A stretch of DNA of 64,000 nt from a virus (Duplodnaviria > Caudoviricetes), in IMG/VR virus record IMGVR_UViG_2974732664_000001, positions 1 through 64,000 of that record; one strand, given 5' to 3'. The notes below the pieces were generated by a model, which was not told the DNA's origin, ran no database searches, and saw nothing but the letters and a program-made list of their open reading frames with translations. Positions 3,002 to 21,522 of the stretch are shown here, piece after piece; the stretch's first letter is position 1, and the number at the start of each line of letters is the position of its first letter. The position numbers and the translations under genes were made by a program.

Positions 3002-3473
3002 GGTTAAAAGAATTAATAAAGTTATTAACAGTTGATTCCATTCTACTTATAGATTCCTCTATCTTTGAGAATCTCTATTCAGTCTCCTTTTTCTCCTTAT
3101 AGACAGGATTAAGCTCAGATAACAATACTGTTGTCTTATCTACTACTTCCTTCTGTTTAGGAACTGACTCAAGTATCTTTTCAGCAGTATTCTTCATCTG
3201 CTCTACTTCAGCCATAAGACCCTACCTATCTGTAGACAATACTACATCTCCTGCATATGTAACAGATAAGTTCTCTGGGATTGAATATGTTGCAGTCTTA
3301 GAGTTAGCCTCTATAGTTACATCTACAACCATTTGTGACTAACCCATTGCTGGCTTTGTATTCAAGTCTAAATGTGGAAATCCAACTGATATAACCTTGC
3401 CATCGGTAATGGTTATATCCTGTTTATTCAGTATATATACTGAATAGTTTTGTTTTACATCTTTAAATGCCAT
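2970..3473 (-). CDS. Hypothetical protein, TAG-recoded (167 aa)
   Basis: ATG at 3473 (MAFKDVKQNYSVYILNK) to TGA at 2970, with internal TAGs and a coiled-coil-like C-terminus. Confidence 0.7.
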
Positions 3474-4536: not shown

Positions 4537-4902
4537 TTAAGACCTAGCTAAAATGTTAAAATCTCTCTTAACGTTTGTTTTAATTTTATCAAGCAGACTA
4601 ATATAATCTGTGTATTTTCTCATGTCTTCAGAATTTTTCTCACCAGTAATCTGTAGTTTGTTATAGCTGTTAATGAGATCGAATTCTTCTGTCTGTGAAA
4701 CATATTCTCTAATAATATTTTTAATACAATCTTTATAATTAGGAACACCTGTCAATTGTACCTAAATAAAATTATAGATAGTTTCTTCCTCGCCATCTTG
4801 ATTTGTCTTCTACTCGCTGGTAATATTATAATTATAATAATATGTATTATTACCGAGTCGTTCTATGGCATTTGGTCTTATATTGGAACTTACTGTGTTC
4901 AT
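4537..4902 (-). CDS. Hypothetical protein overlapping the 3' end of the DGR RT, TAG-recoded (121 aa)
   Basis: ATG at 4902 (MNTVSSNIRPNAIERLGNN), two TAGs, then in frame with track ORF 4537-4755. Confidence 0.7.
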
Positions 4903-6088
4903 ATTTAAAACTATATGGTAAATGTATTTTGTTTAACGTTTTGTATAACCACTTATTTTTAGATCGTACAACAAATGGGACTCTATTTCTTATTGCATGT
5001 ATCTCAAAATATTTCTATCTTATTATAACTTCTACTATATAAAATCGAACGTTATTCAGACTAGTTATATGCTTAAGTTCTCCATTCCACGTAGATAATC
5101 TATATTTTGTAGAATACTACACAATATCAGAAAAATGTTTAGAATTACAAAATTTTAACCATCCTCTATATGATGTCATTCTAGATTCGAATACATGTTT
5201 AGATATCTTGTTGTTTGTGTATTTATGCGTAAGTTTTGATATCTTCGTTTTTATTGATTTTCTTAACAGTATATACTTGTGTCTAAATACATATCCAACA
5301 AAATCTATTCCTCTACTTTCTATTGGAAATACCTGATAATTTGGTTTTAGTTCCAATTTTAAAATATTATGAAAATAAAACTTTATAGCTATCAGTATGT
5401 TTTTAAGATGGTCTTTATTATTGTCTAATATTACTATATCGTCAGCGTATCTGTAGTAATATTTACATTTTACATCTTCTTTTATCCAATGATCAAAATA
5501 CGCTAAATATAAGTTTGTGAAAAATTGTGATAAATAATTTCCTATCGGTACGCCTTTTGCAGAATCTATTATTCCTTTTAATAACTTTAATAACCACTTG
5601 TCTTTTATCTTCTTCTATATTATAGAATACAGTATATCATGATCTATTGATGGATAAAATTTACGAATATCAAGCTTTAAACAATATCTTGTTTTATATA
5701 CGTCATTTTGTAAATCCTTATACAAATCATTAGCACATTTATGAATACCTCTACCTCGTATTGATGAATATGTATTTTTAATAAACACTCTTTTCCATAC
5801 ATCTTCCATTATGTTCATTGTTGCATGATGTGCAATTCTGTCTGGATAGTACGGTAGCCTATAAATAATTCGTTCTTTTGGTTCGTATATTTTAAATGTG
5901 CTATACTATGATGTTTTGTAAGAAAGATTTATAAAATCCTACAATAGAGCTTGATTTTCTACATCTCTATTTTTATCATGTTTTTGTATACCATATTTCT
6001 TTGTTTTATTTAATCTAGCATTTTCGTCAGCCAGATAAATATTGTCTAAGGTACAAATCTTTTCTTTAAGATTGCCTATTCTTTTCAA
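4850..6088 (-). CDS. DGR reverse transcriptase, TAG-recoded (412 aa, 5 in-frame TAG)
   Basis: TTG start (MKRIGNL). Motifs YEPKERIIYRLPYYPDRIAH, LKLDIRKFYPSIDH, GVPIGNYLSQFF (DGR SQ motif), YRYADD (5438-5449) and GIDFVGY. First TAA is at 4850. Confidence 0.92.
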
Positions 6089-6209
6089 AGCTTTTTATAT
6101 TAATATCGAGTCTTCGGGATATCCCTACCAACACGACGTGGTTAATAAACGTTATCTTTTGCCAAGAGGCAAGGTCGCTATTCCCAAAAAAATGAATTTG
6201 GAAATATAA

Positions 6210-6313
6210 ATAGCTAACATTGGTATTGGCATTACTGACTCCATTATTAGAATTGAAATAGCTAAGACTGGCTTTGCTGCCATTATTAGCGTTACTACCT
6301 ACTATGAGTTTTT
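6210..6313 (-). repeat. DGR template repeat (TR)
   Basis: Minus strand CTC ATA GTA GGT AGT AAC GCT AAT AAT GGC AGC AAA ... GTT AGC TAT; AAY-rich and aligns without gaps to VR. Confidence 0.95.
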
Positions 6314-6353
6314 AGTAATGTTCCAGTAAGGAAGAATAGTAACCTGTTTTAAA

Positions 6354-8471
6354 TTAGACTCTCACTAATGACCTAAAGCCAACAGTGGCATGGGCATGAC
6401 TGACCCCATCAGCAGAATAGAAAGAGCCAAGACCGGCCGCGCCGCCAAAATAAGCGTGACCACCCACCAGGAGCGTTCTATTTACAATGGAATCAGCATT
6501 ACACGAATGATAATCGCATTTATATGTTGACTCAGATCCAGTAATAGAAGAAGGAATTATTTCAGCCTTTGATCCAAGATCAAATGTTCCAATATACCCA
6601 TCTTGAGCAATTTCAACTCCAGCAATATCAAAAAGTGAATAATCATCACCATATTTTAATACATCTGTTGTTGTATAAACATTGCTATTAGCTTTGACTG
6701 CATCTCTCTTTATAACAATTCCTTCGAGATTTGTCCAAATGTCACCGAACGGATTTTCAAAACCTCTCCATCTATTTGCATACAAAGTTTTTTCAGGAGA
6801 TTGGAGCTATATAGCTTTTACACCACTAAAGTTTCCAAATTCATTTGTATATCCGCATGGAGTTATTGCGTAATTTTTATTATACGTATTCCATATGTTC
6901 CAATCAAAAGTTGTTAAACCAGGACCCAAACCGCCCTAGTGATAACCATCTGACGTGAGTTCTGAATTAAATTCTTTCTAAGAGTTGAAATTAGCATATT
7001 CTATTACGTAGTTCCAATAGAATATCCATTTATAAAATTCGTAACACAGAAGCTCCTGTCCAGTAGCTGCTGCATATGTTCTCATTGTTTCTCTACTAAT
7101 ATTAGATACAGGCTTTCCGAGATCGGTTTTAAACTAGTCTGTAGCTAAATATTCATCGTATGCTGATCTTCTTCCACCTCCTCTATACTTCGCATCTGTA
7201 CTAACTACTGATGCTACCTTTGTAGTATCGCTGTCAGTATAAATAGTATTGCGATAAGCGCTTATAAACATTTCTGGTATTTCAGTCCATGATGCATCTA
7301 TTTGAACAGTTGAGATTCGTACCCATCTCTTATTTCCGTTAGATCCAGACTTTCCATAGAATCTAGGAGTTCTAATCATTACGTCTCCATCAGTACCATC
7401 TAAATGAGACGGTTCACCATTGCTCTTTTTTGACCAATCATTAGGATTTAAATAATACTACAACTTTCCGTTCTTTACAACACATCCCTTGTACTCAGAC
7501 TATATTGGGAGAGATTTATGGAATAATGGATTTCCAATTCTTGTACATGTAGGATCAGCCACTGTAATATCCCATTCTACACCATATGACAGCATGTCAA
7601 TAGAAACATCAGGGAGCTCTGTCTTCAATGCATATTGAGTTATGTCTATAGTAGAACCATTAGAAGTTAATACATGATTGTTGTCGCCACCTCTTAACTA
7701 TACGCCATTTTCGTTTAACTTAAAATGAAATAAATCGGAACGGTTACCACCAGTAATTGACTCTGGGGTAATATCAATGTAGCCTTTCATAGGATACATA
7801 ACCGATACTAAACCAGCAGATATATAAGTATGTGGACCATTATTTTCTGACATAGATATATCTCCACCTATTAATGTAGTAATATGAGCATTTCCTGGAG
7901 TAGTATAATTATAAACAAAACCTATCTCCATTTCGTAACCATCGCCACTCTACTACGTATAAGGAACATAATTACCAGCATCCTACTTATCACTAATAGC
8001 AGCATTCAGCGTATCAATCTACTAATTAAGCGCTGTTGTAAGAACGTAGTTACTAAGTGCGGTAGCGTCAGCCTTTGTGCTAATAGCTTTTCTAAATGAT
8101 CCTTCTGTGTTTGAATCACCATCAACTATTGCAAGCTTATCTGATATTTCTTTTTCTTTACCTTCTGCTCTAGTCTGCTCTGCCTTAATCTTAGCACTTA
8201 AGTCTTCATCACTCTTTGTACGAGCACTTGTTTCAGCTTCAAGTAAATCCTTTGTAACATAATTACCATTTTCAATGCTATTGTCTATAGCATCTTTTAC
8301 AGACTGATCAATAAGTTTATTTGTAGAGTTTGCATCCAGTATGTCTCCATGCATAAATTCCCCACCTTCAAGATCAACCAATATTTTTGGATTTCTAATC
8401 TACTTCCCAGGTGCTGTTACGAGTACATTCTTTATTGGAACTCTATATAAAAAATCTTTTTCCTAAATCAT
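6354..8471 (-). CDS. DGR target, putative receptor-binding/tail fibre protein with CLec-type C-terminus, TAG-recoded (705 aa)
   Basis: ATG at 8471; four track fragments in one frame, joined across about 14 TAGs. WRGFENPFGDIW motif and terminal VGFRS are typical of CLec DGR targets. Confidence 0.88.
6375..6473 (-). repeat. DGR variable repeat (VR)
   Basis: 26 mismatches to TR over 99 nt, all at TR adenines. Encodes LLVGGHAYFGGAAGLGSFYSADGVSHAHATVGF. Confidence 0.95.
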
Positions 8472-8500
8472 AATTAATGCATTAATGTGTTTAAACAGTA

Positions 8501-8530
8501 AAAGGGAACTACCTTTCGGTAATCCCCTTT
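8501..8530 (-). terminator. Intrinsic terminator after dUTPase
   Basis: Minus strand GGGGATTACC-GAAA-GGTAGTTCCC-TTTT. Confidence 0.7.
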
Positions 8531-9099: not shown

Positions 9100-9123
9100 A
9101 GTATTCAAATATTATTTTTATTG

Positions 9124-9194
9124 TTACCCCACTAGGATTCGAACCCAGACTAAGAGTTTTAGAGACTCCTGTGCTGCCGTTACACCATAGGGCA
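9124..9194 (-). tRNA. Amber suppressor tRNA (anticodon CUA), tRNA-Gln-type body
   Basis: TGCCCTA-TGGTGTAACGGCAGCACA-GGAGT CT[CTA]AA ACTCT-TAGT-CTGGG TTCGAAT CCTAG-TGGGGTA-A. U1-A72 start as in tRNA-Gln; CCA is not encoded. Confidence 0.92.
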
Positions 9195-9506: not shown

Positions 9507-9583
9507 TGGAGTCTATGCAGGAGTCGAACCTGCTAACTATTCCCTTTGTATCGGGTTGTCTTTACCGTTTGACTAATAGACTC
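9507..9583 (-). pseudogene. Degenerate tRNA / tRNA-like RNA
   Basis: Acceptor GAGTCTAT/ATAGACTC, D arm GTC-AAACGGTAAA-GAC and T arm GCAGG-TTCGACT-CCTGC are intact. The anticodon arm is only CCC/GGG with an 8-nt loop. Confidence 0.65.
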
Positions 9584-14458: not shown

Positions 14459-14751
14459 ATTAGACTTGGAGAGACAGCTAGCAACCTGGAAAGACAGGTA
14501 ATTTATAATATGCTCATTTATAATAGGTGAACGATTGCCAAGTGTGGCAACATTGGCATGATACATATCATTGTCTGTGAAGATAGTGATATGTTTATTT
14601 AAGATAAAAGACATTAAGACTCCATATACATTGATTGCACAATTGAGGTTCTTGCCAAGAGTGGTAAATAGTAGATTTGTTTCGTGTACCATGGTCTGTG
14701 AAGATAGTGGTACATTTTTAATTTAAACTCAGCTAGGGAGAGTCTAACATA

Positions 14752-14806
14752 ATCACTGATGAGACCTAGACGAAACTACACATGTTGCATCATACTGTAG
14801 TCTGAT
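14752..14806 (+). ncRNA. Hammerhead ribozyme (type I)
   Basis: Stem I ATCA/TGAT, core CTGATGA, minimal stem II G-ACCTAGA-C, GAAA, stem III CTACA/TGTAG. GUC cleavage triplet ends at 14802. Confidence 0.75.
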
Positions 14807-14938
14807 ATTCATTATTCATAAGCATTTTATCCCCTAAATACAATGGTCTGTGAAGATAGTTGTATTTAACAGTTATCTCATGCGGTATATAAACCAGGAT
14901 GACGGAGCACCTACGCTAACGTGATAAATCGTAGGTAG

Positions 14939-20215: not shown

Positions 20216-20501
20216 AAGTATCTTAGTATCACGTACATAGATTCTGAAGCACTGTAGAGGATCTTAAGAAGACGAGGCAGCGAAGGAATCTCAGAATGAA
20301 TTAACATTCTCATCAAGTATCTTCGTATCACGATGAGAGGAAGAGATGTGACCCCACACAGTAAATTGGGACAGTAGATCAAACAATATGTTTTGTGCGT
20401 ATCTTTGTATCGGGGAGATTTGATTGCTCTGAAAAGTTAATTGAACCCTGCAAAATGTATCAAAAATGCTGAATATAACCCTCTAAGTATCTTTGTATCA
20501 T
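20216..20501 (+). repeat. Dispersed repeat AAGTATCTTNGTATCA (4 copies; 5th at 27071)
   Basis: Copies at 20216, 20315, 20399 (partial) and 20485. Confidence 0.75.
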
Positions 20502-20666
20502 GAGGATTACTATATATTTTTAGCCATGTTTTAAGCGCTCTGAGGCAGAGTATGTCACCAAGTGGAGTAATTAACCACGAGTGCCGCAAAAATGTCTTAG
20601 AGCGCACCTAAAACAGCTTAAATCGAATGTTCTGACTGATCATCGGAACATTTACAAGAAATGTAC

Positions 20667-20904
20667 AATGTGTATGAAATAATCTGTCTGGACAGGGGTT
20701 CGACTCCCCTCACGTCCACTGGGCATCCTCTACGCTATTGTGTAGATTCCATTTGAACAACCTAGGCATGTTGTAAAACTGCCTACACGGGCGTGTTTGG
20801 TTTTGACAGACAGAGGAGATAAATACATTAAGCACTATACTATAAATTAAACGACAATGTAAATAACATTGTAGACTATACTAACGTAGCGTAAGTTTAG
20901 TCTA
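20667..20904 (+). ncRNA. ssrA: Circularly permuted (two-piece) tmRNA
   Basis: The 3' acceptor half (TCTGTCTG-GAC-AGGGG-TTCGACT-CCCCT-CACGTCC-A, to 20718) precedes the 5' half GGGCGTG-TTTGGTTTTGAC-AGACAGA (from 20789). G3-U70 and A73. Tag frame 20853-20894 reads DNVNNIVDYTNVA*. Confidence 0.85.
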
Positions 20905-20930
20905 GGTGTTTCCTACCAAAGTGGAGAGAA

Positions 20931-20992
20931 GAAGAAGTTGGTTCTTTGGGCTACACACCCGAGGATTAGGGTTCGACTCCCTAGCTTCTTCC
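20931..20992 (+). ncRNA. Mini tRNA-like element (no D arm)
   Basis: GAAGAAGT/GCTTCTTC acceptor; TAGGG-TTCGACT-CCCTA T arm. Confidence 0.65.
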
Positions 20993-21000
20993 TATTAGTT

Positions 21001-21522
21001 ATGACAAAGGGATATAAAGCGATGATAAAGGACAGGTGTCCTCATGTCGTCAACCTCGCATTTAAATGGTGTACAGAATTTGGCAGATTATCTAATATAG
21101 GTAAGAAGCCACATGAAAGAATTAAGTATGCTGTAAAAACGCGATGGATAGACCGTGTATACCAAGAAAATGTAGCAATCTATAACACTGGAAGAGGAAT
21201 ACCTCGAACAGATGAAAAGGATGCATCATTAAGAAAAGCTCTTGGAATACATGAGGGGTCGCAAAATTTTAATTTTGCAGACTCTATAAATTTGGATGGC
21301 ATCAACAAAGTATTCAACTCTGGAGAACGAGCATTTTGGATCTGGGTTAATAGCTGGGTAGTATGGTTTCAAGAGAACTATAAGTACCTAGAAAACTATT
21401 ATAACATATCATGTAAGTGTGGCAATATGGCTTTATTTGATAAAGCATTGTCAGAAAAAGCTAGTTTTCTAGATGAGTATTTTGAAGATTTCTCTAAGTT
21501 TATTAAGAAAACATTTAATTAA
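21001..21522 (+). CDS. Hypothetical protein
   Basis: Track ORF 20938-21522; first ATG at 21001 (the upstream part is the tRNA-like element). Confidence 0.75.
   Translation: MTKGYKAMIKDRCPHVVNLAFKWCTEFGRLSNIGKKPHERIKYAVKTRWIDRVYQENVAIYNTGRGIPRTDEKDASLRKALGIHEGSQNFNFADSINLDGINKVFNSGERAFWIWVNSWVVWFQENYKYLENYYNISCKCGNMALFDKALSEKASFLDEYFEDFSKFIKKTFN

Follow-up and report, generated by a model that had tools for sequence, protein, structure and literature searches.

Two-piece (circularly permuted) transfer-messenger RNAs (tmRNAs) have been regarded as a trait of three lineages of bacteria, of certain organelles, and of phages whose copies derive from such hosts. In Rfam, the clade-specific two-piece models RF01849, RF01850 and RF01851 are merged in RF04321. 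The coding pieces of known two-piece tmRNAs typically keep two pseudoknots, PK1 and PK2, around the tag (PMC3985003). Phage-encoded examples are known from aquatic myophages (PMC9004378), and a 2025 tmRNA database holds 79 phage sequences, which it does not discuss (PMC11915505). Here we analyze a two-piece tmRNA gene at positions 20667-20904 of a 64-kb stretch of viral DNA (IMG/VR record IMGVR_UViG_2974732664_000001, positions 1 to 64,000; hereafter the window). The window belongs to a crAss-like gut phage, is part of a 103.8-kb record with terminal repeats, and shares 98% identity with crAssphage cr124_1 (Crassvirales, Oafivirinae, Burzaovirus). The gene is already annotated, as "transfer-messenger RNA, SsrA" at the homologous spot in the RefSeq entries of cr124_1, cr130_1, cr131_1, cr272_1 and cr273_1, so its detection is not new. 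In the searchable literature, however, tmRNA and crAss-like phages are linked only through software citations, and the unusual build of this RNA is nowhere described. The RNA is set apart by a probably independent, virus-side permutation, an extreme reduction, a conserved tag unlike that of the host, and a tRNA-like punctuation at the 3' end.

Two detectors, covariation among relatives and a conserved tag frame agree on a permuted tmRNA in this phage, as an initial annotation made from the letters of the window had proposed. Specifically, ARAGORN calls "tmRNA*" at 20629-20985 with the tag DNVNNIVDYTNVA*, and the Rfam model RF04321 (tmRNA_permuted) matches 20659-20894 over its full model positions 1-213 with 66.4 bits (E = 1.4e-10), above its gathering score of 47 bits. 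RF01850 (beta_tmRNA) reaches 49.3 bits (E = 4e-14), below its gathering score of 84. Scores from the alpha and cyano models are lower still, and these matches were dropped because they overlap within the clan. The order of the parts is as first annotated, with the acceptor half at 20667-20718, a 70-nt segment, and the other half from 20789 onwards; the further elements it had listed, including the T arm, the tag frame and the TAGACTA/TAGTCTA hairpin, are all present at their coordinates. Taken together, these results point to a functional phage-encoded two-piece tmRNA (SsrA) of Oafivirinae crAss-like phages, a reading that we hold to be very probable.

Relatives were collected by pattern scans of IMG/VR and by BLAST, which gave ~77 parsed loci and ~60 distinct sequences. 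Nearly all lie on gut phage contigs of ~50-105 kb, mostly 85-105 kb. Five genera of Oafivirinae carry the two-piece tmRNA, namely Burzaovirus, Chuhaivirus, Cacepaovirus, Bohxovirus and Buhlduvirus. It is also present in Dulem virus 42 (PP511876.1; locus L152, 1131-1646), whose GenBank record lacks the annotation and has tiny "hypothetical protein" coding sequences (CDSs) called across it, and in Bohxovirus sp. PV686213.1 (H5), where the GenBank record likewise does not annotate it. An alignment of 50 distinct relatives, A2, was scored against the structure derived here, with 500 shuffles and slid versions as controls. In A2, 88.5% of the cells are paired, compared with 71.4% in shuffles, and the covariation score of 0.423 (0.142 in shuffles) is reached by 0 of the 500 shuffles and exceeds the slid controls, whose maximum is 0.114. 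Changes on both sides were found in 29 of 44 pairs. Two relatives look damaged, either through decay of the gene or through faulty assembly: L026 (about 7560-7600) has the T loop GGCAGAG instead of TTCGAnT, and in L028 (about 8200-8240) P2 and the 5' half of the T arm are missing.

The features of the gene and of the element behind it are the following.

20667..20718 (+): acceptor piece core (ARAGORN, Rfam, covariation)
20667-70 (+): 5' strand of helix P2c, AATG, in the acceptor piece
20671-75 (+): 5' strand of helix P2b, TGTAT, in the acceptor piece, followed by the internal loop GAAATAA
20683-20690 (+): 5' strand of helix P2a, TCTGTCTG, in the acceptor piece, followed by GAC
20694-20710 (+): T arm, AGGGG-TTCGACT-CCCCT
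20711-20717 (+): 3' strand of the acceptor stem, CACGTCC, with the discriminator A at 20718
20719..20788 (+): intervening segment of 70 nt, presumed discarded
20789..20852 (+): 5' part of the coding piece (Rfam, covariation)
20789-20795 (+): 5' strand of the acceptor stem, GGGCGTG, in which G3 pairs with U70
between the acceptor 5' strand and the P2a 3' strand (+): D-loop analogue TTTGGTTTTGA, in the coding piece
20807-20814 (+): 3' strand of P2a, CAGACAGA, followed by the loop GGAGATAA
20823-27 (+): 3' strand of P2b, ATACA, followed by the conserved bulge TTAAG
20833-36 (+): 3' strand of P2c, CACT, followed by a 16-nt A/U-rich linker
20853-20894 (+): tag frame GAC...TAA (ARAGORN), with the resume codon GAC at 20853 and the stop TAA at 20892-94
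20855-20871 (+): hairpin CAATG/CATTG inside the tag frame, 98.2% paired with compensatory changes in A2
20872-20904 (+): helix 5-like hairpin TAGACTA/TAGTCTA enclosing the stop codon (inverted repeat)
20905-20926 (+): compact H-type pseudoknot in the position of PK2 (covariation)
20905-08 and 20914-17 (+): pseudoknot stem S1, GGTG/TACC
20910-13 and 20923-26 (+): pseudoknot stem S2, TTCC/GGAG, with loop 3 AAAGT
20932-20991 (+): tRNA-like element without a D arm (scan for acceptor stem and T arm; fold)

The acceptor halves pair with one another and keep the alanine identity that had been read from the window. In A2, the 7-bp acceptor stem is 96.6% paired, with compensatory changes at 4 pairs and 11 compensated versions, while the alanine identity pair G3·U70 (U·G at 3:70) occurs in 50 of 50 sequences and A73 is invariant. 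The T stem is 99.6% paired around the loop TTCGAnT. Additionally, the GAC is invariant, and UUUGA is found in 52 of the 52 members of the crAss tmRNA family, 48 of which do not encode the terminal CCA; in the window, the bases after A20718 are CTG. In helix P2, all eight pairs of P2a changed on both sides. The proximal part of P2 as first drawn, TCTGTCTG/CAGACAGA, thus stands, whereas the distal pairing AATGTGT/ATACATT gives way to TGTAT/ATACA plus AATG/CACT around the conserved TTAAG bulge, which is the form that covaries in relatives. In other tmRNA subfamilies, a hairpin displaying TTAAG replaces the bulge. These pairings bear on the idea that the locus is non-working, being either a host tmRNA 3' remnant beside a chance 5' half or merely a tRNA-like processing signal. 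Phages that use ssrA as their integration site often carry fragments of tmRNA 3' ends (PMC9004378), tRNA-like elements do occur elsewhere in this phage genome, and the ARAGORN span absorbs part of a neighbouring one. Because the two halves covary, with the 11 compensated acceptor stems always retaining G3·U70 and P2a changing at every pair, and with an Rfam match over the full model and a selected tag, this explanation is hardly credible.

The tag frame of 13 codons encodes DNVNNIVDYTNVA and ends in a stop codon within the TAGACTA/TAGTCTA hairpin, as initially annotated; ARAGORN returns the same tag. For the conservation of the tag, only relatives found without reference to it were used. Among them the frame is kept, with synonymous changes and a one-codon insertion or deletion only: changes in the codons for Asp, Tyr, Thr and Ala are all synonymous (GAC/GAT, TAT/TAC, ACT/ACA/ACC and GCG/GCA), and frames have 12 or 13 codons, a difference of exactly one codon. 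Relatives end the frame with TAA or TGA and do not use TAG, the recoded codon. The consensus is (A)[G/D]NxN(N)[I/V]VDYTxVA, and the tags are conserved in the five Oafivirinae genera and in Dulem virus 42. In Buhlduvirus cr273_1, GNINVVDYT is kept and the end is GLQEAA; the VA ending, which had been suggested to change the fate of tagged proteins, is therefore not universal. No tag-like peptide was found elsewhere in the 64-kb window. Judged from these sequences, the tag is under selection as a peptide.

This pattern also speaks to the proposal that the RNA is a decoy, which would soak up host SmpB, alanyl-tRNA synthetase (AlaRS) or EF-Tu, or block trans-translation, without tagging. The phage lacks an SmpB of its own, in that no smpB was found in the complete phage record whereas a control Bacteroides genome has one, and the RNA is drastically reduced and without PK1. 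On the other hand, a pure decoy needs no tag frame, stop codon or pre-resume sequence, and here the frame changes only synonymously or by whole codons, the stop is always TAA or TGA, and the sequence before the resume codon is conserved, which makes a decoy improbable. A precedent is the CDS-less tmRNA-like RNA of mycobacteriophage DS6A, reported as such a decoy according to its citation in PMC11915505.

The size of the RNA is in line with the description "highly reduced" given initially. Specifically, the mature phage tmRNA is predicted to be about 200-240 nt long, compared with a median of 396 nt in a host set of 108 one-piece Bacteroidota tmRNAs, which were recovered with the pattern GGGGNTGANTGGTTTTGACAG that matches almost only Bacteroidota among 185,579 species genomes. 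PK1 is absent, as had been noted: 16 unpaired A/U-rich nucleotides between P2c and the resume codon leave no room for it, and an all-against-all covariation scan gave no further helix between P2 and the resume codon. Two other statements of the initial annotation have to be revised, namely that no other pseudoknots are evident and that the unit ends at 20904. A compact H-type pseudoknot lies at 20905-20926, formed by a 21-nt motif that first served as a search handle for relatives. It is 83.8% paired (67.9% in shuffles), with a covariation of 0.377 (0.160 in shuffles) that 0 of 500 shuffles reach. Its stem S1 occurs as GGUG/UACC, AGUG/UACU and CGUG/UACG, and its stem S2 as UUCC/GGAG, AACC/GGUU, GAC/GUC, GGC/GCC and GCUG/CAGC. 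The unit thus extends to about 20931 and is followed by the tRNA-like element at 20932-20991.

The trailing element starts 5 nt past the pseudoknot and ends 9 nt before an ATG at 21001. It consists of the acceptor stem AAGAAGT/GCTTCTT, one inner hairpin, the T arm TAGGG-TTCGACT-CCCTA and the discriminator C. An equivalent element follows the tmRNA in nearly all relatives, with covarying acceptor stems and an inner part that varies freely and spans 40-104 nt. Programs rarely see a tRNA in it: ARAGORN calls tRNAs on 3 of 66 trailing elements, with an odd 67-nt "tRNA-Cys(ACA)" at that of the window, the Rfam tRNA model has no match at its gathering score at 20932-20991, and the Rfam model of mascRNA matches 20934-20988 only weakly, with 15 bits (E = 4.2), well short of its cut-off. 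In addition, the ARAGORN span of the tmRNA, and hence the RefSeq tmRNA feature, wrongly takes in part of this element. RNase P and RNase Z act on substrates of this type, in which an acceptor stem and a T arm are mimicked. By its fold and position, the trailing element is probably an RNase P/RNase Z signal that fixes where the coding piece ends on its 3' side. A strict scan for an acceptor stem with a T arm finds two sites in the 64 kb, compared with 0.04 expected. The second is a mini-helix at 9510-9582 (-), AGTCTAT ... GCAGG-TTCGACT-CCTGC ATAGACT, which lies about 320 nt from a CUA suppressor tRNA and receives no tRNA call from ARAGORN or Rfam.

We propose the following course for the RNA. 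Host RNase P would cut the early transcript at G20789 and at the 5' end of the tRNA-like element, about 20932; as a signal for RNase P and RNase Z, this element would also free the downstream mRNA. The acceptor piece would be trimmed to A20718, to which a host enzyme would add CCA. The acceptor piece (about 55-95 nt) and the coding piece (about 143 nt) would then pair via the acceptor stem and P2, and the RNA, charged by host AlaRS, would be brought to stalled ribosomes by host SmpB and EF-Tu. Translation would resume at GAC and add (A)DNVNNIVDYTNVA. The phage would likely benefit by providing ribosome rescue or bringing it under its own control, with a phage-specific tag, during an infection with heavy cutting of the phage's own RNA and UAG recoding.

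The genome context bears on the latter idea. The minus-strand late genes (41188-63363 and 4852-8528) can be read only if TAG encodes an amino acid; their frames contain many in-frame TAGs (148 in 5445 codons, 60 in 1949, 14 in 724 and 5 in 414). The plus-strand early block, which is the home of the tmRNA, uses the standard code, and its genes have 0-1 in-frame TAGs. The CUA suppressor tRNA of the window lies at 9123-9194 (ARAGORN), and 3 of the 5 tmRNA-bearing relatives examined, cr130_1 and two others, have one. A link between the tmRNA and amber recoding is suggestive; a strict coupling of the two was rejected, given one complete tmRNA-bearing relative in which no CUA suppressor tRNA was found. 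A RAGATH-1 hammerhead ribozyme lies in the same early block (14726-14807 (+), 68.6 bits against 56.3), which fits heavy RNA self-processing of early transcripts.

That relative without a suppressor tRNA is one of several observations that weigh against the favoured reading. First, PK1 is missing. PK1 is important in E. coli, and it is typical of tmRNAs, though not universal. Where it was replaced by a hairpin in E. coli, tagging was still possible, in so far as the experiment (Tanner 2006) is related in PMC3968760. Second, the helix 5-like hairpin is the least supported helix, because only 70% of its cells are paired across A2. Third, the tag frame lies mostly within two hairpins. Fourth, contigs from RNA libraries (wastewater, aquatic and canine, the canine one probably being DNA) show even coverage across all of the 3-kb stretch and no ends; these libraries may contain DNA. 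One low-depth contig joins 20719 to 20787, which fits a strain with another spacer and speaks neither for nor against processing.

As for its origin, the phage gene was compared with the 108 host tmRNAs and with other permuted tmRNAs of phages. Among the host tmRNAs, the tag starts with Gly in 100 of 108 and ends in LAA in 95 of 108, and CCA is encoded in 5 of 108. The other phage permuted tmRNAs have UCGA (64 of 65), an encoded CCA (63 of 65) and tags of the ANDE..ALAA type; the scan that gave this set favoured 3' ends like that of the crAss family. Just before the resume codon, hosts have AAATTTCAAATGGCAAC and the phage has the almost identical AAATTCAAATGGCAAC. These discrete signatures were used because BLAST does not discriminate between the sets: the tmRNA halves give short matches of similar scores to the host and the other-phage sets, both of which are biased by the patterns that defined them. 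An independent permutation, which had been suggested at the outset, is favoured and likely, because the phage gene follows the Bacteroidota type and not the alpha type in its tRNA-like domain, in having no encoded CCA, in its pre-resume sequence and in the Gly-Asn start of its tag; the same signatures differ from those of the 64-65 other phage permuted tmRNAs. From these comparisons, mobile elements were probably the place where a gene of the Bacteroidota type became permuted, without descent from the classical permuted lineages, and the present gene would have formed by permutation and shrinkage of a one-piece tmRNA of that type in phages or mobile elements. A consideration that counts against this ancestry is that the likeness to Bacteroidota could reflect convergence on host SmpB, RNase P or AlaRS.

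Alternatively, the gene may have been acquired in permuted form, from an alpha-, beta- or cyanobacterial lineage or from the two-piece tmRNAs of aquatic phages, and later adapted to Bacteroidota hosts. Permuted forms are frequent in phages, making up 57 of 84 ARAGORN calls in an unrelated IMG/VR phage sample, and are also described in PMC9004378; the 3' tRNA-like domain matches other phage permuted tmRNAs over about 29 nt, and the best of the older Rfam models is beta_tmRNA. However, the beta_tmRNA score of 49.3 is far under the cut-off of 84, UUUGA and the mostly missing CCA are the opposite of what 63-64 of the 65 other phage permuted tmRNAs have, and the tag starts Gly-Asn after a host-like pre-resume sequence rather than Ala-Asn-Asp. 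Capture is thus unlikely, and the independent permutation of a Bacteroidota-type gene is preferred.

In a screen of 151 Bacteroidales genomes, a single genome has a permuted tmRNA match above the cut-off. This match is a second, Bacteroidota-type permuted copy with the tag GNKIESKIAA beside a normal one-piece gene (L349, 1410-1896 (-), equivalent to G030:C48:20201-20567). The permuted copy comes with a separate TAnnTTTG box and terminator and is located on a 109-kb phage-like contig that also encodes an M15 endolysin-type peptidase and a ParB-HTH protein; no protein similarity between this contig and the window phage was found. A phage one-piece tmRNA (L079, tag GNYNSPALALAA) was considered as a possible ancestor and rejected, in that the TTAACTGGCAACTATAA it shares with cr131 is too short (E = 0.015) and L079 has UUCGAC.

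Three further features concern the intervening segment and the leader.

20626..20652 (+): leader hairpin AATGTTCTGA/TCGGAACATT with the conserved loop CTGATCA, directly 5' of the acceptor piece (inverted repeat)
20729-20746 (+): hairpin in the intervening segment
about 20757-20785 (+): candidate small pseudoknot, ACAAC/GTTGT with TAGGCA/TGCCTA (read from the sequence)

In relatives, the intervening segment can be as short as 14 nt or as long as about 230 nt, and the length of the coding piece is constant. The candidate pseudoknot sits just 5' of the site where RNase P is presumed to cut. Hairpins of one family, which share the conserved loop GGTTCGTGAGAATA, occur in the intervening segment and downstream of the tmRNA (cr130_1, cr131_1 and the L160 subfamily), at L002 about 3440-3470, at L003 about 3090-3110 and 3440-3460, and in the intervening segments of the L160 group. 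In cr130_1, cr131_1 and the L008 group, the leader hairpin retains its loop and has a covarying stem. A closing helix between the leader GGAACATT and the 3' motif GGTGTTTC, which RNAalifold proposed and which would resemble the alphaproteobacterial closing helix, was dropped because it competes with the leader hairpin and with the covarying pseudoknot stem S1.

Further upstream, a long-range inverted repeat, TGTTTTAAGCGCTCT / AGCGCACCTAAAACA (20527-20622 (+)), encloses ~60 nt just 5' of the leader hairpin; it may represent a small RNA or an additional structured part of the leader. At 20216-20506 (+), the sequence AAGTATCTTnGTATCA (GTATC-TTn-GTATC) occurs four times with spacings of 99, 82 and 88 nt, in a 420-nt stretch 5' of the tmRNA that is free of open reading frames. 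All Burzaovirus-like relatives have 3 or 4 copies, and the other tmRNA subfamilies have none; the repeats, which differ from the Bacteroides TAnnTTTG box, might form an array of protein-binding sites or act as a repetitive RNA unit. Upstream TATCTTTG boxes were considered as Bacteroides -7 promoter elements and rejected, because relatives mostly have GTATCTTCGTATC and TTTG is not the conserved part. A sigma-70 scan of the plus strand yielded nothing of use.

The crAss family suggests a further independent permutation, on viruses of a host phylum with one-piece genes. To our knowledge, its two-piece tmRNA is among the smallest tag-encoding tmRNAs, having no PK1 and a single 22-nt pseudoknot; it offers a natural minimal design for asking what trans-translation requires, and it could help explain how crAss-like phages manage ribosomes during amber recoding. 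The analysis also exposes a conserved tRNA-like processing signal, which current annotations fuse into the "tmRNA" feature, and a gene that the Dulem virus 42 and Bohxovirus records miss. In its boldest form, the proposal would be that viruses permuted the one-piece gene of their host into a phage-specific trans-translation system, with a VA-type tag that, unlike the host degron, would give its products a different fate, and with maturation by the tRNA-like and ribozyme punctuation that also cuts the early transcripts. Such a system would be needed because UAG recoding and heavy RNA cleavage would fill the cell with stalled ribosomes. We regard this whole as a long shot. If true, no earlier permutation could be credited to viruses.

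The phage gene shares features with several known systems. Like the two-piece tmRNAs of Alphaproteobacteria, some Betaproteobacteria and Cyanobacteria (for example Caulobacter ssrA), it has the order acceptor piece, segment, coding piece, and a tRNA-like domain rebuilt from two pieces with G3·U70 and A73, a tag frame and fewer pseudoknots (PMC3985003). Unlike them, it is without PK1 and has only a 22-nt pseudoknot after the tag, it has UUUGA and no encoded CCA, it does not reach the clade-specific models, and it is carried by a phage that infects a phylum with one-piece genes. The copies of aquatic T4-like phages (OM43 phage Melnitz, pelagimyophages and cyanophages; PMC9004378) are likewise phage-encoded, detected by ARAGORN and dependent on host SmpB. 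However, these copies are similar to the permuted tmRNA genes of the bacteria that are or were their hosts, with ANDE..ALAA-type tags, UCGA and an encoded CCA, whereas in the crAss family the permutation is foreign to the hosts, the conserved tag is a different one, and a tRNA-like element nearly always trails the gene.

The Bacteroidota one-piece tmRNA (tags GENNYALAA and GNNNYALAA) shares with the phage form ..TGGTTTTGA.. in the 5' tRNA-like domain, the 3' end GAC-T arm-..TCCA-C without CCA, an A/U-rich pre-resume sequence ending in AAAT/AAAC, and Gly-Asn as the first tag residues. Bacteroidota genes are contiguous, with the median of 396 nt given above, a full pseudoknot set and tags of 9-10 residues ending in LAA, whereas the phage gene is permuted, about 200-240 nt when mature, and has the tag ..VDYTxVA (..GLQEAA in Buhlduvirus). 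The trailing element recalls the tRNA punctuation of mitochondria and the mascRNA of MALAT1, in which an acceptor-stem/T-arm mimic likewise stands at the boundary of two RNAs. Unlike these, with which it shares no sequence homology, the phage element parts the coding piece of a tmRNA from an mRNA, by a cleavage that would follow from its tRNA-like fold.

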